A stretch of 61,059 nt of DNA, counting the filler, from Stramenopiles sp. TOSAG23-6 (taxonomy: Eukaryota), in NCBI GenBank assembly GCA_900128565.1. It is 13 parts of 13 records of this genome, joined end to end, with 100 filler letters (N's around TTAATTAATTAA, not from the genome) between each part and the next. Parts side by side here need not be neighbours in the genome. Positions count along the whole stretch, not along the records: positions 28,325 to 32,932 come from LT637115.1; 12 more parts are not named here. One strand, given 5' to 3'. The notes beneath the pieces are model-generated. The model had not been told where the DNA came from, did not search any database, and worked only from the letters and a program-made list of their open reading frames with translations. This document shows, piece after piece, positions 4,635-56,546 of the stretch. Numbering within the stretch: position 1 is the first letter of the stretch; every line of letters starts with the position of its first letter. The position numbers and the translations under genes are program-made.

Positions 4635-4734
4635 NNNNNNNNNNNNNNNNNNNNNNNNNNNNNNNNNNNNNNNNNNNNTTAATTAATTAANNNNNNNNNN
4701 NNNNNNNNNNNNNNNNNNNNNNNNNNNNNNNNNN
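4635..4734. other. Artificial contig spacer N-TTAATTAATTAA-N; also at ~9362, 14084, 18801, 23514, 28225, 32933, 37628, 42319, 47010, 51700, 56380
   Basis: Identical ~100-nt spacer with stops in all six frames every ~4.7 kb. Confidence 0.97.
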
Positions 4735-4766: not shown

Positions 4767-7453
4767 TCTTTTGGAAAACAGCAGTTCCAAAGAATTAATA
4801 TTAATATGTTGCATCGTCAACTTGATCGTGATTCACTAAGTGGCATTGGCATCGCTGGACAAGCTAGTCATGGTAGGTCTCCGGAAGAAATTGAAGCTAT
4901 GCGTCAACGTCGTGTACGTTCAGCTCTTGAAAGTGCTATTTTGTGGAACAAACAAGTCAAGCATATTGCAGCACATGCTCATGTTCTAGAAGCATGGAAG
5001 CAAGTACGTTTTCATCATGAATTTCAGATTTATTTTATTTTTTTGTACGAAATTTTGTACCTAACGACTTTTTTTTAAATATTTTTTCACAATACATGTA
5101 ATTAGTGTTGCTTTTCTCCAAGCTTTGACGGCACTACGTGAAGTTGTACGAGAAGGCGATCAAGAAGTTCTTCTTGCGCGACTCGTCATGTCGACACTCA
5201 CAAAACTTCAAGAGCATCCAAACTCTCCAATGACTTTATCTGAGCCTCTGGCTGACACTGTACTCATGCTCATGTGTAAGTTACGTGAGCAGTGTAAAAG
5301 TATGACATTATCAGTTTTACAATGTAGTCAACTTTTACGAAATATTCTACAATGTTTAGTGCGTGATGGTTCTGGAGGGCGCGGTGGTCTTTCTGGTACT
5401 ACACAACAAATGAGATGTTCACTTTATACATCATTATTGTTATATCTGCAATACACTCGGGATGCCCCCAACTACGATACAGATATAGAAATAGAGGGAG
5501 CTGAATTTGATGAAGCTACTTCCGGCGGTTTCACTTTAGATGCAAGTATGAATGTTCTACTTCAACAACATCATCATCGACATGCGTCTTCATCTACTGC
5601 ATTAGAACAACAAGCTATAAAAAGACGCCGTCAGCTTCTTCACTCAAACGTTCAAGTTTTAAGTGAGGTCGGTGAAGCTTTGGCCCAAACTCTTGTTAAA
5701 GATTCCTCTGAAGGCCCCCCCTGTTTGGCGTGCATTAGCATTATCTACATTAGGTGCCGCATTGGCGTATGACCGCGATGCGCGATGGCTACGCTTCATT
5801 CGAGAAAGTGGACATTTACAACGTCTTTTGGTTGCATTACGTGAAATGCCGATTACAATTGTTTTTCCATCAAAAGTTGCGACTATAGCAGAACAAACAC
5901 AGGCAGCTGGCACAATGGCTATATACGAAAGTGCTATGTCGTTATTTGTACGTCTGGCACAATCTCGTCTTGGGGCAGCAGCATTAGTGGATTATGGAGC
6001 AGTTGATGCTATTATTACATGTGCCGCATTACAACATCTCCCTCTCGAATTTGCAGATACAATGGATATCACTGTGTCACGTGATATGAATAGTGATGAG
6101 GGAGTATTGACAGTTACACCAATGCAATCTTTTCATCGTGTGTTGGTACCAGCACTACAATTAGTTTTGAGTCTATCCGTGTCAGTGCCGAAGGACCACC
6201 ATCCTATGAAGCTTCACCTTCTCACTCTTATCAAACAACGCCGAAAGTTATTTGCAGTAGTGCTTCGACAAGCTGCTTCCTCATGGGATAGACATCAAGC
6301 TGCAGCGGCAGCGTCAATGCGTTCTCAAATTTCAACACATGGTGCATCGATAGATAATAACAGAAATACAATAAATCATAATGGAAACATAGCAAGTCAG
6401 GTTGCAGCAGCTACCGCAATAGAAGCTGGTGAAATGGAACAATTAAATCAACTTCAACTTGTAACGGCCATTCTTTCCCAAGCAACAATCGACCCGCAAC
6501 TATTTAATCAGAATCTCGAACATGATGCGGAAAAACTGCGAAAACTTGTCCTTCGTGTAATGTGTAGATTTGTATCTGTTCCTGGTATATTTAAAGGAGC
6601 TGCAGTAAATGAAATTCATCCCATATATACAAATAATGGAAGTATGAATTTAGATCACGAATCTCCGCTTGGTATTCCTTCTGTAGGAGGTCTTGACAGT
6701 CCTCTTCCACCTAAAGCACAATTACGATATTTATCTCAAATTACAGTTCTTCGAAATTGTCTTTCTTTTTGCCGTAGACAATGTATTAATTTTGATCGCA
6801 ATGAAACATTGACTAGAGAACAATTATTTTCGCCACCTGACCGTTTGTTCAGCCTGTCTGCTGCGGTGAAGAATGACTTAAATGCTGATCGAATTGGGAG
6901 TAGTAGTTTTTTTAGTGGGATGGATTCCGTAAATGATGCAGGGCGTGGGAATGTTGCAAGTGAAATTTCAAAAATGGTTCGCCCTGATACGAAAGCGCAT
7001 CTTGATGTCACGTCTCTGGATGTAGTAGTTGATTGTATTAATAGGTGCGCTCTCAGAATTTATGATATCGAGAGGTATCAGAATGAAACACAGCCTGCTG
7101 ATTCTGATGATGTTCCTGATGTGCCTCGCCAGAATAATATTGGCATTTCTTACATGTCAACTGCGACTGGTGCAGGTCGTTTTGATGCACCCTTATCTGA
7201 TGGATCACATGCAAACACCGAACCACAAATGCTTTATTTTATTCTAGAAAGTGCTTTAGTTTTGGTTCACACGCACTTGATGTTGTTCGCCCAGGATGAC
7301 GATTTTGCAAGATATCGAGCTGGGTTACCTCATTTTGTCGAAGGGGTGACCTCTAATGTGACCGTTCTTGCGGCAGCTACCCCTCATTCATTTTTGAGAA
7401 GTATTTGTCATCGTCTTCATGAACTACCCCAAAATATTAAACATGCGACATGA
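4767..7453 (+). CDS. NUP205: Nucleoporin Nup205/Nup192-like, C-terminal part; intron 5004-5097; apparent 1-nt frameshift at C7 run 5715-5721
   Basis: AWKQ|VISVAF, TQQMRCSLYTSLLLYLQ, IYESAMSLFVRLAQSRLGAAALV, ILESALVLVHTHL resemble Nup205. Confidence 0.75.
5004..5097 (+). mobile_element. GT-AT introner-like intron, phase 0
   Basis: CAA|GTACGTTTT...CACAATACAT|GTA; downstream AGs at 5105 and 5122 are out of phase. Confidence 0.85.
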
Positions 7454-9361: not shown

Positions 9362-10174
9362 NNNNNNNNNNNNNNNNNNNNNNNNNNNNNNNNNNNNNNN
9401 NNNNNTTAATTAATTAANNNNNNNNNNNNNNNNNNNNNNNNNNNNNNNNNNNNNNNNNNNNATGGATTTGTCAAGTATATGATGGGAAATCGGAAAATCA
9501 GGGAAATTAGATTTGCATTATCTGAGATGTAAAGATATCTGAAGATAATGAAATTATTTTATTGATACAAAGTGTAACAGTCATTCAGCCTAAATTTTGC
9601 AGTTACTGGATGGGCTCAGTGACGGTTTCACTATCTAGGAAGAAGTGGGTACCGGGTAAACCATTTATTTTTATGGTAATATTTTGGAAAGTCTTTTGTA
9701 ATCAATAATAGTTTGGGAATTGTACTGGAAATGGAGACGTTGGCACAATTGAAGACAATTGTTTAACGTGGAGGAGAGCTAGATTGAGTAACACGAAATC
9801 TGGACTTATGAACGAATGTTCGTGATGATTGATCGGCCGGTCATATTAAATGAATGGCAGATTGTTCACTCTCTTCGATACCGTTTGTGGTTATATAGTT
9901 AAGATAAGAGTAATAAGGTTATAAGTGTTTGGTTGTTGGCTTAGGGGTATTTAGAATATAATTCTAAATACATTATACAATCAAATAAAGTAGAATAGTT
10001 AATTGGTAAACTGTTTGATTCAGGGTTAAAGTTATATTGATCAAATAGTTATATTACAAACATATCGTTGTGCACGAAATCCGTCACTGCAAATCAAGCT
10101 GAAAACTATTTACTACGAAATTTCGTATACAATTAATTCAGTGTCAACGGCAGTCTTTTGTTAGGTAGTGACTA

Positions 10175-11923
10175 ATGAGTAGTACGTCTCTTATAAGTCG
10201 CAGAATTCCGATAAAAAGACAAAACCTTTTATTTGTTTTGGAAGTAGATTACCCGATGAATTCTACAAAACAAATGACAACAGTCACACGGGGCAGTGGT
10301 TGTCCCGTTGCACTTAATGCACTGAAAAGTTCTAAAGATAGAGAGATCAGACGTGCTCGTAAAATGCGTGTCCTACTAGTTTTCTGTAGTCCAAAAATCC
10401 CAGGTGGTGGAGCAGGTCTTCGATTGCAGAGTGAAGAACGTGCTATTAGAAAAGTATTCGCCCGAGCTCCACTTCGAGATAAATTTGAGCTCGATGTATT
10501 ACCAAGTGCTACGATTGATGACCTCTCAGAAGCTCTTCTTGCGAAAGATTATGATATTGTGCACTTTTCTGGTCACGCTGATATACTACTTCATGTAAGG
10601 CAACATATTGTCCAGCGATTTCGCAATAACTATGGTCCAATGGCTGATGAGGTATTACGTTCAGCAGATAGCACTACTAGAGATGCTATTGGCCACGCAG
10701 CATTGCATGTAACGCGTGGATTAGAAAAATCGGTTTCAGAAAAGGCCGTTGGAGTTGGAGGTACAATAAGAAAAGTAAGTGATCTAAAAAAAGGTGAAAA
10801 TGTTTGTGAAAATGTTTGTGCAACTTGCGCAGCGAAAACACAAACTGAAGATATTGTAATAAAGAATAACTTTCTAGCTCTCAAGTCAGCAGTAGAAAAT
10901 GTAGTTGAAGTAGATACGGATTCGGATGGTTTGAATGAAGCNCTTAATATTTCGCTTAATTTTTCAGATCTTATATCTCANGGAGCAGGTTCTATCGCTT
11001 TTGAAGACAATGATGGTAAACCACATTTCGTGAATGCAAAGGCTTTTGCAGATTTACTTTCTGCATATGCACCACCTGTTAGTGTGGTCATATTAAATGC
11101 GTGTGGTTCAAGTATAGCTGGTAGTATTATATCAGAATATCTACCATTTACAATATGTACATCTGGAAATTTAAAAGACAAAGATGCTGTTACCTGGTCC
11201 ACTGGCTTTTATAGTGCATTGGGTGCTGGCCATAGTGTAGAACATGCTTATTCAGAAGGAAGTAGACGAATTGCATTGCATGAACCGGTCAAGCAATACC
11301 CTAACACGAGAAATGTTTCTGTGAATTCTGAGAGTAGTCACCATCAGTCTAATCAATCCATTAGTCAATCTCAACGATCTCATAGTAACCCTAACCCTAA
11401 TCAATCTAACCCTAATCAATCTCATAGTACTAGTAGTTTTAGTAAAGACGAATCTTCTTCAAGCAATATGACTGGCGCAACAGAAAGTAAAGGAAGTAGA
11501 AGAGAAGTGAATATTCATACGAAAACAACTACAGATAGAAGAAGTCGTACACATAACCCTAACCCTAGGGTTAACCCTAGTTTTGTAGGTAATTTNGTAG
11601 GTAATAGTGGAGATAGTTCATCGACACTTCTTTTGCGAAATGAAAAATTAGTTGCAAAACGTAGAGAAAATGGTATTTTCCTAGGTGTACAAGAAGAAGT
11701 AAAATATCTCCGTGAACAAAATGGTCAGATGAAAAATGTTTTACAAGCAGGTTTGAAACATTTTGCAAAACAACATGAAGAGATTAANAGTCTTCGTAAN
11801 GCTTGTTACATTCGAAATGCCACAGAATTAGTTCAAAACCATATGAATAAGAAAATTAAAAATGTTGAGGACGAAAATGATAAAGTCTGTAGTGAATTAT
11901 CAATGTATGTATCTTCCATATAA
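10175..11923 (+). CDS. CHAT (caspase-HetF-like) domain protein with C-terminal coiled coil
   Basis: LRLQSEERAI, ATIDDL..YDIVHFSGH, VVILNACGS His/Cys motifs. Confidence 0.75.
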   Translation: MSSTSLISRRIPIKRQNLLFVLEVDYPMNSTKQMTTVTRGSGCPVALNALKSSKDREIRRARKMRVLLVFCSPKIPGGGAGLRLQSEERAIRKVFARAPLRDKFELDVLPSATIDDLSEALLAKDYDIVHFSGHADILLHVRQHIVQRFRNNYGPMADEVLRSADSTTRDAIGHAALHVTRGLEKSVSEKAVGVGGTIRKVSDLKKGENVCENVCATCAAKTQTEDIVIKNNFLALKSAVENVVEVDTDSDGLNEXLNISLNFSDLISXGAGSIAFEDNDGKPHFVNAKAFADLLSAYAPPVSVVILNACGSSIAGSIISEYLPFTICTSGNLKDKDAVTWSTGFYSALGAGHSVEHAYSEGSRRIALHEPVKQYPNTRNVSVNSESSHHQSNQSISQSQRSHSNPNPNQSNPNQSHSTSSFSKDESSSSNMTGATESKGSRREVNIHTKTTTDRRSRTHNPNPRVNPSFVGNXVGNSGDSSSTLLLRNEKLVAKRRENGIFLGVQEEVKYLREQNGQMKNVLQAGLKHFAKQHEEIXSLRXACYIRNATELVQNHMNKKIKNVEDENDKVCSELSMYVSSI

Positions 11924-12090
11924 ATCGTTGGTAGTGTATTTGTTTATATACCTTACTTATAAAAATATATGTTTTTTAATATGAATTCTTATGTGTTTTG
12001 TTTATTTACATGGTTACTGTTTTTATTTCTTTATCTCGATTTTATATATTTATAATACTCAATAAATNAACATTGCAATATCTATTTTGT

Positions 12091-12170
12091 TTTTAACAAT
12101 TGACTAAAATATCATCTATAAAATAAATTGTTTGAACAATTGACTAAAATATCATCTATAAAATAAATTT
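12091..12170. repeat. 40-nt tandem duplication overlapping the HslU stop codon
   Basis: AACAATTGACTAAAATATCATCTATAAAATAAATT occurs twice. Confidence 0.85.
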
Positions 12171-13968
12171 AGTTAGGTCCATCTTTGTCAACATGGAGCC
12201 AAGTTTTTCATCCACATCTTTGGNAGTAATTGTTACAGTTGAATCAGGCTTCATGTCCGAAGCGTCAAAAGATATATCATCCATCATTCTCTCCATGACN
12301 GTATGAAGACGCCGAGCACCAATATTTTCGACTTGAGTATTCATCTCTGCTGCAACATGCGCAATTCTTTGNATTGCTTCATCCTCAAAGACAAGTTTTA
12401 CACCATCTGTTTCAAGTAAAGCAATTTGTTGACGAATCATATTCACTTCTGGTTCAGTAAGTATACGTAAAAGATCTTTTTCTTTCAGACCATTCAATTC
12501 NACACGAATNGGAAGACGTCCCTGTAACTCTGGTAAAAGATCAGCGGGNTTACAATGATGGAAAGCACCAGATGCGATAAATAATATGTAATCTGTATTT
12601 ATGTTACCATGTTTGGTATTGATAGTGGAACCTTCAATTAAAGGCAACAAATCACGTTGCACGCCTTCATCAGANGCATCACCTGAATTACGACTACCCT
12701 CCGCATTGCAAATTTTATCTATCTCATCGATGAAAACGATACCATTTTGTTCTACTAGTTTTATTGCATCTGCAGTTAAATCACTATCGTCCAATATTTT
12801 TTCGATTTCATAATTTTCCAAAGATTTCCGAGCATCTGGAACCAACATTTTTTTTGTCTTCATTGTAGGTGTCGGTGGACTTCCAGCATTTCCACGACCT
12901 TGNAGCTTACTAATTAAATCAGCAATAGGAACTGCGCTAATACCATTTGCATCGCCACCACCAGCCATCAACGTCTGGTTGCCTGGAGGGGTAACAGGAA
13001 TCTCAACTTCGACTGCAATTTTATCGAGTTCTTTACTATGATACATTTTAAGCCACTTTTGCATATCATCTGGNTCTTCTGAACCAACTANCTGTTGAAT
13101 AATTTGGTTTGCTACTTTATCCTGAACCATAGGTAAAAGAGCTTCCCGTTTTAGCTTTCGCATTAAAGTAATGTATTGTAAAAAAAAAGTCAAATTTCAA
13201 ATTCATTAGTCATAACAAAAATTACAAAAAAATTGTCTAGAAAAAAATCTAAAATTACAAAACAANTTGTCTAAAAAAAAATCTAAACTTCTTAATAAAA
13301 ACATACATGCCCTGTTCCACAAGGTCTCGAATGATCATATCCACGTCACGACCGTGAAAACCAACTTCAGTGAATTTCGTTGCTTCGACTTTTAGAAAAG
13401 GTGCATTAGCAATCTTACTCAATCTCCGTGCTACTTCAGTTTTTCCACAACCAGTTGGGCCAATCATGAGAATATTACGTGGCATTACTTCCTTTTGGAG
13501 TTCNTCGGGAAGTTGCTGACGCCGCCAGCGATTTCTCATGGCAACTGCCACAGCTCGCTTTGCGTCAGACTGTCCTACAATATGCCTCTCGAGTTCAGTG
13601 ACAATTTCGCTAGGTTTCATATTTTTCAGTTCTACAACTTTTGACATGACTGCTTTAACAGTTATTTCACTGTTATCTTCAACTAGACCAGACACTAAAG
13701 GATCCTTTTTTTTACTGCCCGAAGTGTCCCCATTCGTCGTGTCTGTAGAACTGGGGCCAGTTGATAAAGATTGTATACCTTGACGTGAAAACACAGCTGA
13801 GTGATTTCTTAAAATGGGTGTACCCGCCAAGATGCCATCAGACGCAGGAGAGCGAGCAGATGTATGTAATGAACGAATACAAATAGGAATAGTTCCTGTA
13901 GACCATTGCGTAGACCGCTTACCAAAGCTAGATAGAATACATCGAGCTGTTGCACCAGCAGAACTCAT
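12156..13968 (-). CDS. hslU: ATP-dependent protease ATPase HslU/ClpY (organellar); exons 13968-13307, 13170-12156
   Basis: [57 protein letters not shown]; transit-peptide-like N-terminus. Confidence 0.95.
13171..13306 (-). other. Diverged GT-AT intron, phase 2
   Basis: GGC AT|GTATGTTTT...TACAATACAT|T ACT gives RDLVEQGITLMR; branch-like TGACTAAT. Confidence 0.85.
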
Positions 13969-14183
13969 ATTCTAGAAGAACAGCTAATGTATTTTATATA
14001 TTGGAAGTCGAGCTGATGATCCCTTTTTGTGTGCCTCTTTTTTGGAAAGTTTTTTGACGCGAGTTTTCCGAGTTTTCCGGAATNNNNNNNNNNNNNNNNN
14101 NNNNNNNNNNNNNNNNNNNNNNNNNNNTTAATTAATTAANNNNNNNNNNNNNNNNNNNNNNNNNNNNNNNNNNNNNNNNNNNN

Positions 14184-20832: not shown

Positions 20833-23431
20833 GTGGAAAAAATGAATTGTATTTCATATCCAGCAAAGTTGATGTCCATGTCTAAATTATTCGTAGTTGT
20901 GGTAGTGTCTCTACTAATATTGAATCCGGTATTTGCTTTGTTCGAAGATGAAGTTGGTGTGGTTGACTGGGTACGACAAGGTATTGGTGCCGTACGTTCA
21001 ACTATATTTCGGGGAAAGTACACGTATGTTTCTACTGAATCTGGTGTCGTTGCCAAATTGGTAACTTCGAGTGGTGAAATTCAATGGAGGCAAGTACTTC
21101 CACGAAATGAACGTGTTGAAGTATTGCAGTATAGTAAATATGGTGTACTTACTGTGACAAAACAGAAGATGGTTCGTCTTTTTGACCGAAAGACTGGAAA
21201 TCTCAAATGGGACAGCTCTTTTACGAATTCTGCCGAGCAGCAGAATGATCCGAAGGATATATTGAGTCGTTTACACTCGTCCTCTTACATGGAAGGTGAG
21301 TGGATAAGCGACTTTGATGGTGACAATATCGAAGACATTTTAATACTCTGCGATTCTCAACTTGTAGCTTTTTCAGGTGCAACGGGTGATCTTATTTGGG
21401 AATACAAAGCCAAAAATGGTATTATACTCCAAACTATGAATGTCGAATACTCTGTGATTCATGTAGCTGGTATGAGAGCACCAGACGATAAGCTTACGTC
21501 TAACCTTTTTATAGCAAACATTAACTTTGCTAATGGAGAGGTCGTCGAGAGTCACGAACAATTTGAAGCTAGGGTTCCTGGCTGCCATCTTGCATGGATA
21601 CACTCGAAAGAATATGGTGCTGCTCTTGCCTTCTTGGGATATGAAGCTAAAGCAATATCTATTTATATGTTTGCTTCTGGTAGTTTTAGTCATGAAACAT
21701 TTCGTGTCATTGGCCTCTCAGATGACTTTTCCTCTACAAATAGTCAATTGTCATTAAAACCATTACATGGAACTCGACGTAGACAAAATACGATGCTTCA
21801 ATTGAGTAATGACACGTCCGGTGATGTGTCGATTTTGAGTGCTAAATTTAGTAAAGATGGAAGTAAAATTGTGTATGAAATAATTGATTTTTCTGTCAAT
21901 AGAGAAGAAGAAAATTCAACTGTGTACACCGCAGTATCTCCTTCTTCAAAAATTGAATCGTATGTTGCGTCGATGCGTACAACAAAAAAAGGTTTAGTTA
22001 CACAAATCATTGATTCAAAAGGGAAACAAACGAAAAGAAAAATCGACATTTTGCCAAAGTTAAACTCAGAAACACATGGCACTCAAATCAAAACATTTTT
22101 TTTCAGAAATATTTCATATGATACATTTGAAGTTCTCGTCGTCCTTGAGGATTTGTCGACTGTCTTATTTAGCATTGAATACAATACGCCTAAAATTTCG
22201 TGGATCAGAGAAGAAGCAATTGCTACTGGGTATAAGCTTCTTGATGGTGATATCGCTAATACTACGTTAAATGATAATGTTGTTTGGGCAATACCTGACA
22301 CAACTCACGAGCATAATGCCTCCGGTCATCGTTCTCAAGATCCTTACCATATGACGTTTGCGATGAGATTGTTTGATCAAATGGAAAGAATTATTCATTA
22401 TGTTGAGAACACTTTAGCTCATTTAAAGACCAATATTAAATTGGTATCTATGATGCGATCGTGGGACCCAATGACGTTTTCTTCTGAATTTGACATTCTT
22501 TCAAAAAATACTTTTCATCACAGGAACAACTCCATATCTGGATATGAATCTAGTTTATTTGGGTTCGATCGATTACTTCTATTACTGACCACCCCTGGGA
22601 AAATATTTGCTATACATGTACGTTTTTATTATGAATTTTTTTTCGTACGAAATTTTGTACCTAAGATTTTTTTTAAATTTTTATTATGAATTTTTTATCT
22701 ATAATTTATTTTTCATACGAAATTTTGTAACTAAATTTTTTTTTTTCAATTTCGAATTTTTTTTTTCACAATGCATGGTGTTGATGGATCGATTGTTTGG
22801 TCAACTTACATTCCTGGGGCGACTAAAGTATTTGTGGACAATCAAGCAGAATTGGTGTTTGTTGTAAGTAAACAATCTAATTCGTACGAAATATCTGTAC
22901 TTAGTATGATTTCTGGTGCCAAAGAAAGTCATCATACGTTACCTAAAGATATCAAACAAATTTTGCCTTATAAGAACGTGAAGAATATTTCTAAAAGTGT
23001 GGAGCATCTTCCATTTATGTTTCTGATTGTTGATAAAGATAATAATGTAGCTTTATTTACGCATGATGCTTCAAAGGTAGATATGATACGAGATGTCATC
23101 AAGGATAACTATTCAGTGACATTTTATCAGCAACTCAATATTGAAAATGGGACTTTAAAAGGGTTTAACATGTATGTCTTATTTTTTTTTTCAATTTTGA
23201 AGTTTTTTTCATACGAAATTTTGTACCTAACGCCTTTTTTTTTTTTGAAATATTTTTTCACAATATATTCGCCCTGTTTCCAAAAGTGACAAAAAGAAGA
23301 GTAATAAAAGTAAAACCAATATCTCCTTTGATTATAAAGGACAAGAAATATGGTCGTTACATACAAAATATGATTGGCCTGATGAATCAAAAAATATATC
23401 GAAACTTGAATTAAATTCAAACGAGATTCAT
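20833..23431 (+). CDS. EMC1: ER membrane protein complex subunit 1, partial; exons to 22617, 22777-23171, 23269-23431
   Basis: ALFEDEVGVVDW, SGEIQWRQVL, WIREEA, FGFDRLLLLLTTPGKIFAIH|GVDGSIVW. Confidence 0.85.
22618..22776 (+). mobile_element. GT-AT intron, phase 0, internally duplicated
   Basis: CAT|GTACGTTTT...CACAATGCAT|GGT. Confidence 0.85.
23172..23268 (+). mobile_element. GT-AT intron, phase 2
   Basis: AT|GTATGTC...CACAATATAT|T; opens a stop-free exon to the next donor at 23432. Confidence 0.85.
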
Positions 23432-24788: not shown

Positions 24789-27700
24789 CTACCAAAATAA
24801 GTGTTCAAAATCAAATGGATCATCTTCTCGCGTTTTCTCTTTGGCTTGAGGAATCGATGCTTGGCATAATACATCAAATTCAGCGAATGGGTCGTCATTT
24901 TTTTCATGGATCTCATTTTTGAAATTTTTCTTCAGTTTTTTTTTCTGACAGTTTTGTTCATTTGGAGAATTTGATGAAAATACGTCAAAAGGATCTTCTG
25001 AATTTGTAATTTTTGTTTGGGTTGGTGGCGAGGAACCCCAACCGACTGGCAAAAAAACATCATGTTTTTTATTTTGTATCGAGATAGCATTCGTTTTACT
25101 CAAATGAAGAGAGACATTGTTCTTTGAATTAAAATCATTACGATTTGTCTTGTTCGTCGACATTTCCTGAATTTTTGATATCAAAGATTCATCCAGATTT
25201 TCTGTATTGGTCAAATGAAATTCACCAGCAAACCCTAAATGCATGCTATATGAAATGAGACTACCATCTTGTAAATGAACTAATATGCAACGATCATCGC
25301 GCGACGCTGACAGAAGTGTTATTGGGATATCGGATGCATTTTCTATTACTCGATGTTCTTGTAATGTATTGCAAAAAAATATTTCAAAAAAATTCCAAAA
25401 TTTGTTAGGTACAAAGTTTTCAAAAAAAAAATTAAATGTGAAATTCATGATGAAAACATACATGTATGTGCCCAGAGGACTCTAATTTTGTGTAATGTTG
25501 AAGTGATAACGAAGCGTTTGTCATTTGAAATTAATAGTTGAGGAATACAAAATTCACTAACATCAATTTGTGCATACGCTTGTGAATAATACCCATTAAC
25601 AGAAAAAAGGGATAATTTACTGCCACGTAAAACTAAAAGTTTTCCGTCACTTAAAAATTCTAAAGCACGCACAGAATAGCTTCTTCTACTTCCATCGATA
25701 GTCATAGTATCGTTACAAGAGGCAGCAGTCAAAACTTTGAGGAATGAAGGTGGATAGATTTGATGAATTACACAAACGCCAGTGATATCTCCTGAAGCAA
25801 TTAAACCAACATCGTCATTGATGGACACACAGGAGATTGAAGCTTCATGTCCATACAAAATTTCTGGATAATTAGCCCCAGTCTTTCTATTCTCCTTCGT
25901 ATACTGTGAAATTCCAGCAAATATGACATCATCGCTACCGGTTACTCTTGATGATCCAGTATCCGAAGTTAATAGCTCACGAGGGCCAAATTCATCACTT
26001 AATGTATTCACCTTCCATAATCCTAGCGTACCATCTTTAGATCCGACGACTACCCATTTATCTAGTTCACTTAAACATATTGCTGTAGTTATACTATGTA
26101 GACCATCAACTCGTTGTAAAATATTTCCAGATTTAGCACCATAGGTACAAAGACTAACATCCGAATGTCCAGAACTTATTACAACTCTACCACGATTTCT
26201 ACTTTTTCCTAAAAGAGCAATGCCAGGGCGCGAGGAACCGGAAATCATCGATTGTGCTAGTGCAGTATGAGGTATGACAGTTACAGGAGAACTAGCAGGG
26301 GTAATTTGGACTGGAAAATCATTGCCACAATATCTATATAATATTCCATCACCATGCATATCAACTACAAAAAATGCACCATTTCCACTTTGATTTCCTG
26401 GTCGAGATGGAGGTGGTTTGTCACACCAAATTATTGCGACTGCTGGTCTACTCAAAGAAGCAATATTTTTCTTTTCTACATAAGATTTCGACATTGTCTT
26501 TGATTTTTCCACTGCAACAGGAAAATTACTTTGCATAGTTTCTTGGTGAGACATGTTTTTTGGAAAAATATTTCAAAAAAAATCTAAAAAAAAATGTTAG
26601 GTACAACATTTCGTACGAAAAAAATAAATTTGAAATTGAAAAAAAATAAAACATACATTCGCCGTGGATGTTTCTTTTGAAATAATTGTGATGGAGTTTG
26701 ACCAAATGAAGCAATTTGAGTTTCCATGGCTTGGCGCATCACAGGATCCGAAATCTGACGGAAATCAACATTTCCTTCATATGTCAAATGATAAAACAGA
26801 TTATTAGCTTTAACAGCCTCCGCGCCTGTCTGTTTGTATCCAAATATAAGATCAATCCAATGATGAAGTCGACTTGATACGTGATCACTTTCGAGTGCTA
26901 ATCGATTTAGACGTATAAATTCCTCGGCTGACGAAGCCCATGGAGGTAAAATAACATCATCAACAGGTAGACCATCTTGACGTGTACCAAATTGTAGTGA
27001 GTTACTATTCATTAAAAATTGAGGAATAGAAAACCACTCTGGTGTCAGTTCTTTGACATCACTTGGACTTTGTAAACAATTATTCCAAGTATTCTTAATA
27101 CTATAAAATAACCTATCGGGAATGTCAAATTTTCCTCCTTGCATTGATAACCCATAGGATGTATATGGTTCGATACGTAATAAATAATAAAGAACAGTTC
27201 CAACAGACGAATAATGAGATCCATACATAAATGGTGGTATCTCAGCATCATTTAATGATTCAAATCGCTCTAAAATATGACTCAAGCGCTCAGGATTTAA
27301 CGCTCCAATAGGTTTACTCAGATCTCTATACGTTTTTGGGTCTTCAAAATCTAAAGACTCCGAAGTATAATCTGAAATTACCCATGGCATAATTGGATAT
27401 TGCGTTAAATCATGATATGTCCTTCCAGCAGCATCATTTAAATGCATTAAATACTCCAAATTAGAAATTTTCCTCTGCTGCCATAAGTCAGTCCAATTAT
27501 ATGCAGATACTAAGTGCTCTGGGGTATAAAATTGAGAAGAACCAACATCACGTGCCATTAGCGGGGGTTTTAATTTAGAGATGATTTGAAAGCATTTCAA
27601 AGAAGAAGTGTCATCATGCAAATTAAGAAATATAGATGTACCATCATCAAAAAATATTTCAATAGCCGTCCTCTGAAGGAGATACCGACGATTTCTAATA

Positions 27701-28324: not shown

Positions 28325-29630
28325 AAAAAGTCACCAAAAAAACACATACATATATATGACGGATCATACTGTAATCCATTGATAACACACAATCCTTGTA
28401 TTTGTGATGAATCTCTCGTATCGCTAGGTAAAGATCATATTGCTATATTTTTACCACCATTGTACGTTTTCGAAATTGAATTCCAATTTTTTTTTCGTAC
28501 TACATTCCGTACCTAACAAATTTTTCCACCAAAAACAATATTTTTTCGTAATACATGTATGTTTTATTTTTTTTTTTAACAAAAATATCGAATTTATTTT
28601 TCATACGAAATTTTGTACCTAACAATTTTTTTTTTTTTTGAAATATTTTTTCGTAATACATGGTTTACGTGTGGAAGATATCTCGAGGTGATCCGGAATT
28701 TTGTCGTATACAAATGTCGAATGATTCCTCCGATGTTGAAATAGATTCTTCAATTGAGCTGAATGATACAATGGATAGTAATATAACGTCTTGTTCAGTT
28801 AGTAGTGTACTTTCAAGTGATGCGACTGCTAGTAATAGTGATTCTATCATAAAAGTAGAGGATGGAGAATGGACATGTGCATTAGTTCAGACTCCGAAAA
28901 ATCGCGTGATATTCCGAAATTGTTTTATAAATAGTAGTGTTCATGGCGAGTTATTAATGATACTAGATACTTTGGGTTTTGCCTGTTTTTGGGGTATGAC
29001 AAATATAGATAGGAATGGAAATATCATGACAAGACCAACCCTTTCAGAAGTTGACGTGAACAAATGTGGTTGTTTCGCAGTGCAAATCATACCGAGTGAT
29101 GTTGTAGATCGTTATTCATCCACTTTGCAACTTTCAAGATGTACTTGTGCATCGAAAGTTTGTATGTTTTCATCATGAATTTTAAATTTATTTTTTTCCT
29201 AAGAAATTTTTTGTACCTGACAAATTAAAAATTGAAAATATTTTTTCACAATACTTGTATTTCATGGTTTGATGAATCGAAAAGCTCTTTATTCATAAGT
29301 TGTATACAAATTTCGAATGATGAAAATGAAAATGAAAAGGTTGTGGTCCAAGAACCCATTTGTGTAAAGTTGCCTATTGTAGGAAGACCTGTGTTAGTCA
29401 AAGGTATTACATGTCGGAAATGTTGTCATAATCGTCTTTTAGACTCTAGCCATGAAATGTCGCTTCTTTTATTAGTACCTTCATATATGAGTGGTAAAAA
29501 TTCAGAACAGCCAGTGTGGTGGGCTGCGTGCTTTGATTATGATGATGAAAGTTCTACAATTTTGAAAAATATTTCTCCTCCTTTTGAGGGGGAATCTATT
29601 ATGAAAATGGGAAAACGATTGTTTTCGTGA
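28325..29630 (+). CDS. Hypothetical protein, 5'-truncated; exons 28325-28461, 28662-29161, 29257-29630
   Basis: Continuous frame after removing family introns (IFLPPL|VYVWK; SKV|CISWF). Confidence 0.6.
28462..28661 (+). mobile_element. Two abutting GT-AT introns (28462-28556, 28557-28661) with no exon between them
   Basis: ...CGTAATACAT|GTATGTTTT...; each unit has its own donor, TACCTAAC and acceptor motif. Confidence 0.8.
29162..29256 (+). mobile_element. Family intron ending in TT (equivalent by sliding to GT-AT 29166-29260)
   Basis: T|GTATGTTTT...CACAATACTT|GT, phase 1; TTGTAT repeated at both ends. Confidence 0.75.
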
Positions 29631-31256: not shown

Positions 31257-32880
31257 ATGGCATCCAATGATGGAAATTATCGTGCGAAATATGAAAATCC
31301 ACTGGTCCATCGGTATGCTTCTGCTGAGATGAGTGCTGTATGGTCTCCTGCAAAAAAATTTGGTACTTGGCGAGAGTTGTGGCTTGCGCTTGCACGTGCT
31401 GAACAAGAGTTGGGCTTAGATATTACCGACGAACAGATTCAAGAGTTGGAGTCCAACATGACCAACATAAACTACAAAGTTGCCGAAGGATACGAAAAAA
31501 AATTTAGACATGATGTAATGAGCCATGTTCATGCATGGGGTGATCAATGTCCCAAAGCAAAATCAATTATCCATCTCGGTGCTACGTCCTGTTACGTCTG
31601 CGACAATAGTGAAGTGATCATGCTAAGAGACGGTATGAAACTATTATGTCGTCGTCTATTAAAATTTTGCAAAGTGTTAGGGGATTTTGCCGAGCGTCAC
31701 AAAGCACTACCCACACTTGGATTTACGCACTACCAACCTGCACAATTGGTTACTGTGGGGAAGCGTGCTGTATTATGGCTCCAAGATTTTCTCATGGATT
31801 TTGAAGAGTTAGACCGGCGAACAAAAAATCTTCCCATGCGCGGAGTTAAAGGCACTACAGGGACACAAGCAAGTTTCTTGGCATTATTTGACGGTGATCA
31901 TAATAAAGTAAAATCATTGGGGTCGCGTGTTGCAGAATTGATGGGATTTGAACGAGTCATTCCAGTCTCAGGTCAAACATATACACGAAAAATAGACTTT
32001 CAGATTCTCAGTATATTGAGTGGTATTGCACAATCGGCGCATAAAATGGCAATTGACATTCGTCTTTTAATGAATTTAAAGGAGGTTGACGAGCCTTTTG
32101 AAAAGAATCAAATTGGCTCCAGTGCCATGTACGTTTTCATCATTTATTTCAGTTCCAAAGTTTTCAATGATTTCAAAGCAAAAGTTTTTTGTACCTATTT
32201 TTTGTACCTAACGAACTTTTGATGTAGCATTTCTTTTCACAATATATGGCATATAAACGAAATCCAATGCGATCTGAGAGAGTATGTTCTTTAGCAAGGT
32301 ATGTCATTTCACTGACAGCAAGTGCAGCGAATACGCATGCACAGCAATGGTTTGAAAGATCTCTGGATGACTCGGCTATTCGTCGTATTAATCTCCCAGA
32401 AGCATTTCTTGCGACTGTATGTTTTCATCATGAATTTCAAATTTATTTTTTTTTCCTACGAAATTTCGTACCTAATCTTTTTTTTTTTTTTTGAGTGTTG
32501 CGACTCTATATTTTCGTCTTTTCAATTCCAAACGAATTATCCAAATTTATATTGTACCCTAAAGATTTGTTTTACTAAAAAAATATTTTTTCACAGAATA
32601 TGATGTCCTTTTACGTATTATGGAAAATGTACGTTTTATATGAATTTCTAATTTAATTTGTTTTTTTCGTACGAAATTTCGTACCTAACAAATTTAAAAA
32701 AAAATTTTGAAATATTTTTTCACAATACATGTCATTTCTGGTTTAGTTGTTTGGCCACAAGTGTATATTTTCATCATTCATTTCATTATCAATTTCAATT
32801 TTCTAATCCAATGTTTCTGTACCTAACGAAGTTCAAATTTGATATATTTTTTCACTATACATGATTCATAAACACATCAT
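31257..32880 (+). CDS. ADSL: Adenylosuccinate lyase, 3'-truncated; exons 31257-32128, 32248-32416, 32602-32628, 32731-32762, 32863-32880
   Basis: [52 protein letters not shown] signature. Confidence 0.97.
32129..32247 (+). mobile_element. GT-AT intron, phase 2, inside the SSAMxYKRNP signature
   Basis: GCC AT|GTACG...CACAATATAT|G GCA. Confidence 0.92.
32417..32601 (+). mobile_element. GT-AT intron, phase 0
   Basis: ACT|GTATG...CACAGAATAT|GAT; the CAG at 32596 is out of phase. Confidence 0.88.
32629..32730 (+). mobile_element. GT-AT intron, phase 0
   Basis: AAT|GTACG...CACAATACAT|GTC. Confidence 0.9.
32763..32862 (+). mobile_element. GT-AT intron, phase 2
   Basis: GT|GTATATTTTC...CACTATACAT|G ATT. 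Confidence 0.85.
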
Positions 32881-33032
32881 GTATGTTTTATTTTTTTTTC
32901 AAATTCGATTTTTTTTCGTACGAAATTTTGTANNNNNNNNNNNNNNNNNNNNNNNNNNNNNNNNNNNNNNNNNNNNTTAATTAATTAANNNNNNNNNNNN
33001 NNNNNNNNNNNNNNNNNNNNNNNNNNNNNNNN

Positions 33033-33084
<52 letters not shown>

Positions 33085-33169
33085 CATTTTTTTTTTTTTT
33101 TTTTTTTTTTACGAAAAAAAAAAAAATTGTACCTAACAAATTTAAGTGAAATATTTTTCCAAAATACAG

Positions 33170-35500
33170 TCACTAGATTCTTTAGGTAAACGATGGAAAT
33201 ATAGTCTTGCATATGATCAAAATAACTTTTACTTTTGGTTATTTGGTGGACAACGAATTTGGCATGTATGTTTTTTTTTTATGAATTTATTTTAGTTTTT
33301 TTTTCGTAGTAAATGTTGTACCTAACAATTTTTTTTTTGGTAAAAAAATTTTGAAATATTTTTCCACAATACATGGTTTTGCAAAGGCATCTCAAGCATC
33401 AAATGATTGGGACATTACTGATGCAGACAATTTCCCAAAAGGCGGTTTTTTAGATGATTTATGGCAGTTTACACTACAAGAAAAATTTCATTATGTTTTA
33501 AAAATTCAATATTTACAAAAATCGCGTTTTTTAATGGCTGAATTTGATACTGAAAAAGCAACACATGTTGCGGATAAATCGAATCAATTTGCACATTTTA
33601 AATTTACAGTTGTACCCGGTTCAAAAATTACAAAAAAAGGAAATTTGGAAATTAAAATTTATCAAATTCAAAATACATTTACTCAGGAATATCTTATTTC
33701 TGAAGAGGATGATGATGGAAATTATGTATTAAAAACGACACAAAATCAAGCCAATCCTAAAACTCATTTTCAGGTTGAAAAAAGACAAAGAAATTATTAC
33801 ACTTTACGCATTGATAATACGGATGAATTAGTATCTAGTTATGCAGATGGTTTCAATAGTACTCATGTACGTTTTAGTTTTTTTTTACAAAAAAAACAAA
33901 AAAACATTTCGTACGAAATTTTGTACCTAACAAAATATTTTAGATTTTTTTTTTGAAATATTTTTCCAAAATACATTTTCGTGACGTTCCAATTCAATTT
34001 GTTGACTCAACTATTGGAGAAGATATTGTGAATGATTATAGTGTTTTATTTCAAATTGAAGCCTATGTAGAATTTAATCTAGTTGAAAAGAAAGCAAAAA
34101 AATCATGTTTTCAAAATCCTGGAGACGAGTGTACGTTTTCAATTTCGAATTTCAAATTTTTTTTTGTTTTTTTTTTCATACGATATTTTGTACCTAACAA
34201 TTTTTTTTTGATTTTTTTTTTCACAAAACATGGTCGCAAAGGAGAGATGTAAAGTGTAAAGAAATTTGGCCGCCTGGTAGAGCTGGTCATGAAATGGTCT
34301 TATACAACTCAGGCTTATATATGTATGTTTTTTTTTTGGATAATTTTTTTTTTAACCGGTAAAAAAAAAATCGATTTTTTTTTTTTTTTTTTTCGTACGA
34401 AATTTTGTACCTAACATTTTTTTTTTAGAAAAATTTTGAAATATTTTTCCAAAATACATGTTTGGAGGGTATAGAGTCAATTTTCCATATCCTTATTCGA
34501 CTTCATCTGGTGCTGGAATATCAACTGCCGGAATACAAGGTGAAGAAGGATACAGTGCATCTCCAAATACTCCAACATTTTTAGATGATTTTTGGGCTTT
34601 TAATACCACAACTGGATTTTGGGCCACAATTCAACCATGTATGTTTTATTTATTTTTTTTTTTTACCGAAAAAAAAAATCGAAAATTCTTTTTCATAGTA
34701 AATTTTGTACCTAACAAATTTGAGTTTTTTTTTCAAATATTTTTCCAAAATACATATAGTCCACGAAATCCTGGACCGCGTATGGGATATAACATGGTTG
34801 TTGCAGGTAATACACTCTTTATGTTTGGTGGTTATAAATCAAATGTATTTAATAATGAAGTTTGGATGTTTAACGTTACATCAAATATTTGGACTGAAAA
34901 AGAAACATTTGTCCATGTATGTTTTAGTTTTTTGAAAATTTGATTTTTTTTTTTTTTTTTTTTTCATAGGAAATTTCGTACCTAAAAAAATTTTTTTTTT
35001 TTTTTTGAAACTAAAAAAAAAAAAATTTTGAAATATTTTNNNNNNNNNNNNNNNNNNNNNNNNNNNNNNNNNNNNNNNNNNNNNNNNNNNNNNNNNNNNN
35101 NNNNNNNNNNNNNNNNNNNNNNNNNNNNNNNNNNNNNNNNNNNNNNNNNNNNNNNNNNNNNNNNNNNNTTTTTATTTTTTTTTTTTTTTTTTTTTTTGTT
35201 TTTTTTTTAATTTTTTTTTTCGTACGAAATTTTGTACCTAACAATTTTTTTTTTTTACTAACCAAAAAAAAAAAAAAAATTTTGAAATATTTTTTCACAA
35301 TACATGTACGTTACGAGTCTTGTATAACAGACAAACTTCCACCATTAGAAACAGATGACACAGGAATCATTGTATATCCAGATATATTCCCTTGGTGTGT
35401 CGCAGAACCTGTATCATCATCCATTCCTCCACTTTTTGCAGGATCTTGGGGATATTGCAACTGTGCGAATTGTAAGGAATGGGATACTCGTGGTGTGTAT
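33170..35500 (+). CDS. Kelch-repeat protein, partial; exons 33170-33265, 33375-33866, 33977-34130, 34232-34322, 34460-34638, 34756-34916, (gap) 35306-35500
   Basis: Spliced product gives RWKYSL..LFGG, WPPGRAGHEMV..LYM|FGGY, PGPRMGYNMV..LFMFGGY..NEVW. Confidence 0.8.
33266..34755 (+). mobile_element. Five GT-AT introns: 33266-33374, 33867-33976, 34131-34231, 34323-34459, 34639-34755 (plus AG acceptor at 33169 and donor at 34917)
   Basis: Each matches the consensus and each removal keeps the kelch frame. Confidence 0.88.
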
Positions 35501-35509
35501 GTACGTTTT

Positions 35510-35542
<33 letters not shown>

Positions 35543-35725
35543 TTTTTTTTTTTAAAAAAATTTTTTACCCTAAAAAAAAAAAAAAAAACAATTGAAGTTC
35601 CAAAATGTTTTTTTTTTTCCCTACATGATGATTTCAATTTTTTTTTTTTTTTTTTTTTTTTTTCGTACACAATTTCATACCTAACAAAACCAAATCAATG
35701 TTTGAAATATTCTCCTATACTATAT

Positions 35726-50277: not shown

Positions 50278-51610
50278 ATGAATCGTTCATGGCACAAACG
50301 AAACATAGGTATTCGTAACCGGCCTCAACGTCGTTTCCAACTTCTATTGTCGCGTGCAAAAATAATAGGTTTTCATCAGGAGCACAAAAATGATGGCTCA
50401 CCTGTAACTACTAGATACGTTATTGATGTTGTGATAGTAAAGTCGTCTAAACATAACGTGACACGCATTACAACGTTAATTAAGACTGAGAATGATATTT
50501 CTGAACTTGAAACATCTTTTGTACGTTTCCATAGTCTCACACCTTCACCAGTATTCAATAGATCTTGCTCTATTTTAGGGCCAAATGTGGACAAAATGAC
50601 AGAGCGTGTTCAACATCTCAATAGGTGGTTTAAATATATCATTACAAACTCAAAATTGAATTCATCGGCTGTGTTCAAGAATTTCTTTTTGACGGGTAAC
50701 ACTTCGTATTTGCAACGAAGCATTCCCTCCAATTCTACCTTTCCTTCGCTATCTCCGTTTTTTACAGGTTTTTTCCACGCCTTGAGCTTACCACTACATT
50801 TATCATCCAAGACACTGAAAATTAGATTGCCATACGTTTCAGCGAAAAATATTGATCTTGTTCTAGAGGTATCAAAAGGTTCATCCGTCAAATCATATCG
50901 AGATAATGAAGTTGTGCATAATATAATAAGCTGGGCTAACCTTCAGTGGACAAAATGCGAAGAATTTGACATTTCAATAAACCACCCAAATACTACTGAA
51001 AATACACTACCAAAAAAAGAAATCGTGGACATTCTCCTCCAAGGTTTAAGTAATAGAATTTGTAGTGTTATTCGTCCTACACTCTGGTTCAAATGCTCAG
51101 GAGCTTATCAACTTGCGGTAGATGCTGGAGCTGATGAAAATGTAATCATAACTTCTTCATCGACTTCAATGATGTATGTTTTATCTTTTTTTTTTAACAA
51201 AAAATCGATTTGTTTTTTAGTACGAAATTTTGTACCTAACAAATTTTAATTTTTTTTTTGAAATATTTTTCCGAAATACATATACCAAAGGTATTGGCAA
51301 CAGTCAAAAATTACGGATAAAGTAATGCATCAAATTAAGCTCGATTTAAAAAGATCTGGCCTTGTTACTCCAAATAGTATGAAATCTCTAGAAAGAATAC
51401 TTGTCGCTTTTGTATCACGAAATAAAGGAATTTCATATGTCCAAGGTATGAATTTTCTCGCGGCAACCTGCCTCCTTGCTGGTCTGCCAGAAGAACAAAC
51501 ATTTTGGGTCCTTTGCCAAATTATAGAGCAACGACAGTTACAGTATTATGCAAAGGAGTTAGAAGGGTTATATATTGATATATTTGTAGTTTCAATTCTC
51601 CTTCGAACGT
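50278..51610 (+). CDS. PX-like plus TBC (Rab-GAP) protein, partial; exons 50278-51173, 51282-51610
   Basis: QIKLDLKRS, GISYVQGMNFLAA, EEQTFW; GT-AT intron 51174-51281 keeps frame. Confidence 0.85.
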
Positions 51611-56379: not shown

Positions 56380-56546
56380 NNNNNNNNNNNNNNNNNNNNN
56401 NNNNNNNNNNNNNNNNNNNNNNNTTAATTAATTAANNNNNNNNNNNNNNNNNNNNNNNNNNNNNNNNNNNNNNNNNNNNCTTTGATTTTTTTTGTTAGGT
56501 ACGAAATTTCGTACGAAAACAAAATTAAATTAAAAAAAAAACCTAC

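Follow-up and report, generated by a model that had tools for sequence, protein, structure and literature searches.

How can two complete introns come to lie end to end in a gene, with no exon between them, and how might the pair be removed? We addressed this question at a locus of Stramenopiles sp. TOSAG23-6, within a window of 61,059 nucleotides (the whole stretch of DNA analysed here). The window strings together unrelated contigs of ~4.7 kb in decreasing size, separated by linkers of the form N44-TTAATTAATTAA-N44 (4635-4734, 9362-9461, 14084-14183 and so on to 56380-56479), and the locus lies in the contig at 28325-32932. Adjoining contigs are not genomic neighbours, and many break within introns of the family described below. 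Long open reading frames under the standard code, together with Pfam matches to BEACH, EMC1, Nup192, ELMO and EF-hand, mark the source as a eukaryote. The closest named relatives of the adenylosuccinate lyase (ADSL) exon in the window are stramenopiles, and the EukProt label on a public coding sequence (P0004), whose exons are identical to those of the window ADSL, points to a MAST-3 assembly. The sequencing runs that contain the tandem-bearing contig are seawater samples. Elsewhere in the window, a run of C at 5700-5712 lies between two overlapping frames (5065-5772 and 5663-7453) that belong to a single Nup192-like gene and is probably a homopolymer sequencing error rather than an intron, and isolated Ns across 10942-13504, in a CHAT-like gene and HslU, suggest a low-quality consensus in that contig.

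The two introns, A (28462-28556, 95 nt) and B (28557-28661, 105 nt), are complete members of one intron family on the plus strand with no base between them, which confirms the back-to-back arrangement reported in a first-pass annotation of this DNA. Unit A belongs to the GTACG subfamily, with the 5' end GTACGTTTT, a branch-like box GTACCTAACAA at 28509-28519 and the 3' end CGTAATACAT; unit B belongs to the GTATG subfamily, with the 5' end GTATGTTTT, the same branch-like box at 28615-28625 and the same 3' end. The annotation had also given each unit its own branch motif and a different interior, and both statements hold: overall identity between the units is 69%, and from the 5' end to the branch it is 66%. 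At their junction, ACAT/GTATG (28556-28557; a slash marks a cut), a 3' splice site abuts a 5' splice site across an exon of length zero. Judged by sequence, the arrangement ..ACAT/GTATGTTTT has the juxtaposed 3' and 5' sites that define a recursive splice site.

The upstream exon (28394-28461) is an open frame whose last codons read IFLPP, followed by TT, and the downstream exon (28662-29161) continues with G, VYVWKISRG...ASKV and a final T, as delimited by the frame and by a contig at 28633-29158 from an independent DNA run. A further family intron follows at 29162-29265, carrying ACTT, a decayed form of the usual ACAT, and TTTCAT as its in-frame end, and the last exon (29266-29630) closes with a stop codon at 29628-29630. 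Excising 28462-28661 and 29162-29265 yields a single frame of 333 codons from the contig start, reading ..IFLPP/LVYVWK.., and excising A alone or B alone leads to a stop codon. A continuous frame is therefore obtained only with both units removed, as had been claimed, with the qualification that the argument depends on at most 45 open upstream codons, because an ATG at 28660-28662, straddling the end of B, offers an alternative start. The host gene had no homologue among proteins of 91-291 aa and contained no Pfam domain, and a single low-complexity match in 1.84 billion representatives was judged unrelated. Because the host gene is an orphan, it is the reading frame that argues for exon continuity at the tandem.

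For independent evidence of the locus we aligned Logan contigs of one DNA run (X3, a separate 2024 sample of seawater DNA) and three RNA runs to the tandem contig. An X3 contig of depth 7.9 covers 28394-28577 with 0 differences; over that stretch it reads exon, the whole of A with its CGTAAT end, and B for 21 nt, and 163 nt lie left of the A/B junction. A second, of depth 6.5, covers 28633-29158 with 3 differences (99%) and contains the last 29 nt of B and the exon; neighbouring single-copy X3 contigs have depths of 6.5-9.7. A formal bridge needs 31 nt on both sides, and with 21 nt on the right the X3 support for the A/B junction is strong rather than formal. The check that the first-pass annotation had proposed, genomic DNA spanning both units, thus succeeded in part: the exon, A and the start of B stand in one contig, and the repeat-rich inside of B is spanned by no unique X3 contig. 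Near the left end of the locus, contigs from X3 (DNA) and X6 (an RNA library) match 28336-28400 and then run into different sequence, and another X3 contig matches from 28394 rightwards with different sequence leftwards, the two sets overlapping by 7 nt (CCTTGTA, 28394-28400). Either the window contig is a chimeric join at this point, or the sampled population carries an insertion that duplicated 7 nt. Positions 28325-28393 are open as well, but their contiguity with the exon is uncertain, and if they are not contiguous only 22 upstream codons are certain.

Two alternatives bear on whether the locus is what it appears to be. Two alleles or cells with different introns at one site might have been stitched in tandem during assembly, an idea to which the fragmentary contigs, so many of which end within family introns, and the 20-nt end common to A and B lend some colour. 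Independent seawater DNA, however, shows the exon, A and the start of B at a single-copy-like depth and, separately, the end of B with its exon, and we consider such an artefact highly improbable. The pair might also lie in a 5' untranslated region, or otherwise upstream of a true start at ATG 28660-28662, the upstream open frame then being due to chance. A 289-codon ORF does begin at that ATG, the contig divergence at 28394-28400 leaves those 22 upstream codons as the certain ones, and two minus-strand frames are likewise open upstream of A. Yet stops interrupt both other plus-strand frames over the 45 codons in which the required frame stays open (a rough estimate puts chance at ~0.04), ACATG is common at the ends of family introns, and A and B are both in sense orientation; this placement seems distinctly unlikely.

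The family to which they belong has a consistent layout: a 5' GTAYGTTTT, a branch-like TACCTAAC 32-49 nt before the end and a 3' ...AATACAT, A and B both ending in TTTTTTCGTAATACAT. Allowing at most one mismatch, GTACCTAACAA occurs 37 times in the window, against a mean of 0.97 and a maximum of 4 in shuffled sequence, which makes A and B copies of a real repeat family. There are two main subfamilies, one beginning GTACG with ..TCATCATGAATTTCAAATTT.. in its interior (A) and one beginning GTATG with ..ATTTTTTTTTACAAAAAAATCGAA.. in its interior (B). Copies sit in ADSL, BEACH, EMC1-like, HslU and other genes, and those in the window are 69-93% identical to their nearest copy. In 30 of the 37 occurrences the motif has the same strand as the nearest long ORF, and 2 have no ORF nearby; the 5 scored as opposite comprise 3 pairings across contig linkers, 1 chance motif and 1 unresolved occurrence, leaving no clear antisense case. 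Introns with other interiors have the same GT and AT ends (1893-1971; the HslU intron at 13171-13306, minus strand). A perfect 12-nt palindrome, TTTCGTACGAAA, occurs in 13 places (for example, 32667-32678) and in many copies lies just 5' of the branch box; the GTACG within it matches the start of one subfamily, with which it pairs in the fold of unit A. In X3 the summed contig depth over the family core at 28479-28632 is ~6,000 times the single-copy depth, a figure that is not a copy number, and relative to exons the core depth is of the same order in poly(A) RNA runs as in X3 DNA. These depths hint that the family has thousands of copies and that intron sequence is frequent in RNA libraries.

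An AG at the 3' end of introns is almost universal. The 3' ends of this family are AT in 27 of 29 copies and AG in 2. Cutting before GTAYG and after the terminal AT left 21 of the 22 curated copies in frame (evaluated over at most 150 nt on each side), the one miss being a copy whose flank overlapped a neighbouring intron; with the 3' cut shifted by 1 or by 2 nt, the frame was kept in 4 of 22. An AG occurs between the branch and the end in 9 of 25 introns, and its use would break the frame in 7 of these 9. Even AGs at least 10 nt from the branch, despite looking like textbook acceptors, are by frame unused in 5 of 7 introns. Of the 25 curated copies, 24 have a T immediately before the intron, so that cutting one base further left (TG..CA) would give the same mRNA; on motif conservation GT..AT alone fits all 25 copies, an argument of parsimony and not a proof. 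Copies ending in ACAG are found at 33169 (plus strand), where the following exon is in frame if cut there, and at ~18045 (minus strand). Many copies of the GTATG subfamily carry a T run and an AG ~13 nt past the branch, for example at 2266-2275, 33935-33944, 34412-34421 and 26590-26600 (minus strand). No clear GT-AG intron was noticed on incidental inspection of the window.

The ADSL gene (32129-32932, plus strand) provides a test case for these ends. It holds five family introns in ~260 coding bases, with exons of 27, 32 and 18 nt between them. Exon 1 aligns with residues 9-294 of human ADSL, and a full-length homologue of 490 aa (P0003) is 82% identical. Around the complete introns (32129-32247, 32417-32601, 32629-32730 and 32763-32862) all four junctions, SSAM/AYK, FLAT/DVLL, EN/V.SG and P.V/I, are colinear with P0003. 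GT-AG splicing of the first intron would add 8 residues to the catalytic signature loop; P0004 takes this GT-AG reading and then translates through the next intron. A GT-AG reading of the family is rejected on the frame and on the ADSL signature loop. An AT-AC reading, with both cuts 2 nt to the left, would change T to N and V to M, relative to P0003, at two of the four ADSL junctions and is impossible in the 14 of 35 copies whose 5' flank is not AT. A comparison of the HslU junction with solved structures gave no match. On frame and colinearity, the family introns are best described as GT...AT, not GT...AG.

The signals otherwise resemble those of U2-type introns, with a 5' GTRNGT and a CTAAC-type branch box before a T-rich tract, but with AT in place of the 3' AG. 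U12-type introns have a 5' RTATCCTT and a branch TCCTTAAC 10-15 nt from the end; the family's GTAYGTTTT and its branch box 32-49 nt from the end reject that identity. An Rfam search of the window returned 0 matches and hence no snRNA. Seven folds gave z-scores of -2.75 to +0.84 with no consistent terminal helix that would make an end-to-end hairpin, and by eye the family ends pair over ~9 nt at most, imperfectly. Pfam searches detected neither a transposase nor a reverse transcriptase in 26 window ORFs. A metagenome scan with a loose pattern (11-mer, gap, ACAT) selected 120 loci, and nhmmer (E <= 1e-3) identified a family copy in none of them (0/120); viral contigs scanned for the family gave 0 matches, and literature searches with its motif strings returned primers only.

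Where does the family insert? Of 35 5' ends, 31 are immediately preceded by T, 21 by AT, 13 by CAT and 3 by ATACAT; two of these last three, at 22618 and 25461 (minus strand), are ordinary exons and the third is B. Downstream, G follows the family 3' end in 15 of 29 copies, and GTA or more follows it in three copies besides A, with GTACGTT after 35305. Flanks showed no target-site duplication, own and cross matches numbering 45 and 44.5 (p = 0.50). The flank counts and the absence of a copy-specific duplication put the preferred site at about (C)AT/G. A resident copy ending in CAT and followed by G recreates this target, so each copy's own 3' junction is a target in turn. CATG occurs 246 times in the window, including 14 resident 3' junctions; for 13 insertions behind CAT, a rough expectation is ~0.8 at a resident junction, and one intact tandem is observed. 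On this rough count the tandem is what the habits of the family predict and not an excess.

Other introns in the window are also built of more than one unit. On the minus strand, a fused two-unit intron without internal sites lies at 18800-18655, and at 19026-18944/18943 (to 18901) a 3'-truncated unit directly precedes another that shares its first 24 nt. On the plus strand, multi-unit introns lie at 22618-~22790, at 32417-32601 (185 nt with two branch-like boxes, in ADSL), at 35501-35718 (218 nt) and, spanning a gap, at 34917-35305. The multi-unit introns without usable internal splice sites look like decayed tandems. Arrays are probably under-counted, because so many contigs break within family introns. 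The zero-length exon between A and B is the end of a series that includes the 27-, 32- and 18-nt exons of ADSL.

The two units of the intact pair differ in age. B is 92% identical to its nearest copy, at 51174-51281 (94% up to the branch), and falls within the youngest cluster; A, whose nearest copy is 76% identical, is among the more diverged copies. A was therefore probably the earlier of the two, an order that rests on nearest-neighbour identity among 23 copies. The ages, together with the (C)AT/G preference and the frequency of AT before the family's 5' ends, agree with the proposal of the first-pass annotation that a second copy inserted into the AT/G made by the first. One feature calls for more. 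The last 20 nt of A (28537-28556) and of B (28642-28661) are identical and contain CGTAAT, whereas CACAAT or CAAAAT occupies this place in other copies; an exact match to TTTCGTAATACATG occurs in the window only at 28544 and 28649, and over the last 20 nt the other 21 copies have at most 0.9 identity to A and to B, compared with 1.0 between A and B. Simple independent insertion leaves this private 20-nt end unexplained and an extra step is needed; the shared end points to conversion or to homology-guided insertion.

We favour, with a probability of roughly 60%, the explanation that an introner copy, B, inserted at the AT/G 3' junction of an older A, so creating the zero-length exon, and that the end became shared afterwards or in the process. 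In such a model an introner-type family would insert without detectable target-site duplication, mainly at (C)AT/G, and each resident copy, with its CAT end followed by G in about half of cases, would regenerate that target where its own 3' end meets the exon. A, the older unit, would have been resident first, and the young B would have landed exactly at A's 3' junction, leaving an exon of length zero. B's last 20 nt would then have been copied from A, or provided by A in a homology-guided insertion, B being copied in from a primer or crossover within A's homologous end. Of these elements, the anatomy, the family, its GT..AT ends, the target preference and the relative ages are seen in the data, and the order of insertion, removal by splicing and its route are inferred.

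Two further alternatives concern how the pair arose and how it is removed. Local recombination, conversion or duplication, rather than a new insertion, could have made the tandem, for example if a B-type copy integrated through the 3' end of A. The 20 terminal nt common to both units, with a CGTAAT present in no other window copy, would suit such an event, as would the partial tandem duplications at 19026-18944/18943 and 22618-~22790. The interiors, however, are 66% alike, B is so similar to 51174-51281 over its interior up to the branch that it must have come from elsewhere, and the two identical ends are not what a simple crossover would produce, since its two hybrid ends would differ; we regard this origin as rather unlikely and retain insertion of B at the junction of A. 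As to removal, 28662 might be joined directly to 28461 through the branch of B, with the internal ACAT/GTATG unused and the pair acting as a single composite intron of 200 nt. The multi-unit introns at 18800-18655, 32417-32601 and 35501-35718, without usable internal sites, must go in one piece, and the frame over 32417-32601 is supported by ADSL colinearity. Unlike in those decayed arrays, both internal sites of A and B are intact and match the consensus, and they should compete where introns of 100 nt are the units. Obligatory one-piece removal is a sizeable possibility, though less likely than not.

The pair would accommodate either course. If A were removed first, the product ..CCATT/GTATG would present a normal 5' context, T at -1 being the family norm; if B were removed first, ..ACAT/GG would present a normal 3' context; and one step from the 5' site of A to the 3' site of B would remove an intron whose 200 nt are within the range seen in the window. 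All three predicted routes would give an identical mRNA, and both units keep full signals. In the RNA runs, depth on the exons flanking the tandem is 0-3, and among the joints listed, at depth <=3, no RNA contig joins 28461^28662, 28461^28557 or 28556^28662. An RNA-library contig at 28778-29197 extends 36 nt into the next intron and is unspliced RNA or DNA, and other RNA-library contigs hold unspliced intron-exon pieces, either pre-mRNA or DNA.

Beyond the confirmed tandem, the main result is a self-spreading introner family with GT..AT ends in a stramenopile. A broader proposal, which we offer tentatively and consider doubtful as a whole, is that in a MAST-3-type stramenopile YAT is the regular 3' site of nearly all introns, all of them derived from one CAT/G-homing element, and that recursive splicing at AT/GT resolves arrays that later decay into composites. 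If introns here do end in AT as a rule, with GTAYGT and CTAAC, they would be a natural experiment on the choice of 3' site in the second step of splicing, and the AG-reading factors would be predicted to have changed. Gene prediction built on GT-AG ends fails on such introns, as P0004 illustrates by reading through introns and adding 8 residues to the ADSL loop. Gene counts and claims of gene loss for genomes with introns of this kind may need another look. A paper on MAST-3 single-cell assemblies gives only ~2,700-3,300 genes in 19-21 Mb, with pseudogenes inferred, to which there may be a connection. The A/B pair itself marks the limit of intron crowding, offers a substrate for asking whether a spliceosome that recognizes short introns as units can handle two without an exon, and supports the idea of a mobile intron that targets its own splice junction.

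Searches of the open literature, which leaves subscription journals mostly outside, turned up neither such introns in MAST-3 or any other stramenopile nor an intact pair of abutting introners. Introners in Micromonas, Aureococcus, fungi, dinoflagellates and other groups are, in the available text of two papers, many near-identical short introns in sense orientation in unrelated genes, with their own splice signals and precise removal, and certain families also lack target-site duplications or inverted ends (PMC9860276, PMC12130899); the same available text contains no description of intact head-to-tail pairs. The family here likewise consists of mobile sense-strand copies whose predicted removal restores the frame (37 motifs; 21/22 frames), but its ends are GT...AT instead of GY...AG, no copy-specific duplication was found, its ends pair weakly and no transposase or reverse transcriptase was seen in the window. 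Of the transposon hallmarks, neither a target-site duplication nor terminal inverted repeats nor an autonomous partner was found in the window. Floods of transposon-derived non-canonical introns are described, in the text available to us, for Fritillaria borealis (AG-AC and AG-AT), for the hairpin introners of Amoebophrya and for Polarella (PMC11282704, PMC7789003). Those cases share with ours a lineage-specific flood of mobile introns and a spliceosome that would accept non-AG ends, whereas the introns here keep a canonical, conserved GTAYGT and a yeast-like branch box with T for G as the last base, and have neither an 8-20-nt inverted repeat joining their ends nor a 3-5-nt direct repeat.

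GT-AT introns themselves have a precedent in Physarum, where, according to the available part of a preprint, U12-type introns underwent a mass gain and GT-AT introns make up 17% of 1,014 non-canonical U12-type introns and a transposon origin is proposed (bioRxiv 10.1101/2020.10.12.336362). The present introns begin with GTAYGTTTT and not RTATCYTT, their branch lies 32-49 nt and not 9-12 nt from the end, and GT-AT is the rule rather than the exception. Recursive splicing in Drosophila and vertebrates, as outlined in the available text, involves a zero-length exon and a regenerated 5' site at AG/GT in very long introns (PMC8605326, PMC5126111); here, as far as the genomic sequence tells, two complete mobile units of ~100 nt meet at AT/GT. 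Another parallel in layout is that of the [D1,2] stwintrons of Hypoxylaceae, in which, in the portions available, one intervening sequence contains two introns that are sequence-similar copies and are removed consecutively (PMC8469720, PMC9024468, PMC12403724). There a signal of the outer intron is interrupted by the inner one, which fixes the order of removal, whereas in the A/B pair both units are complete and could be removed in any order or in one step.
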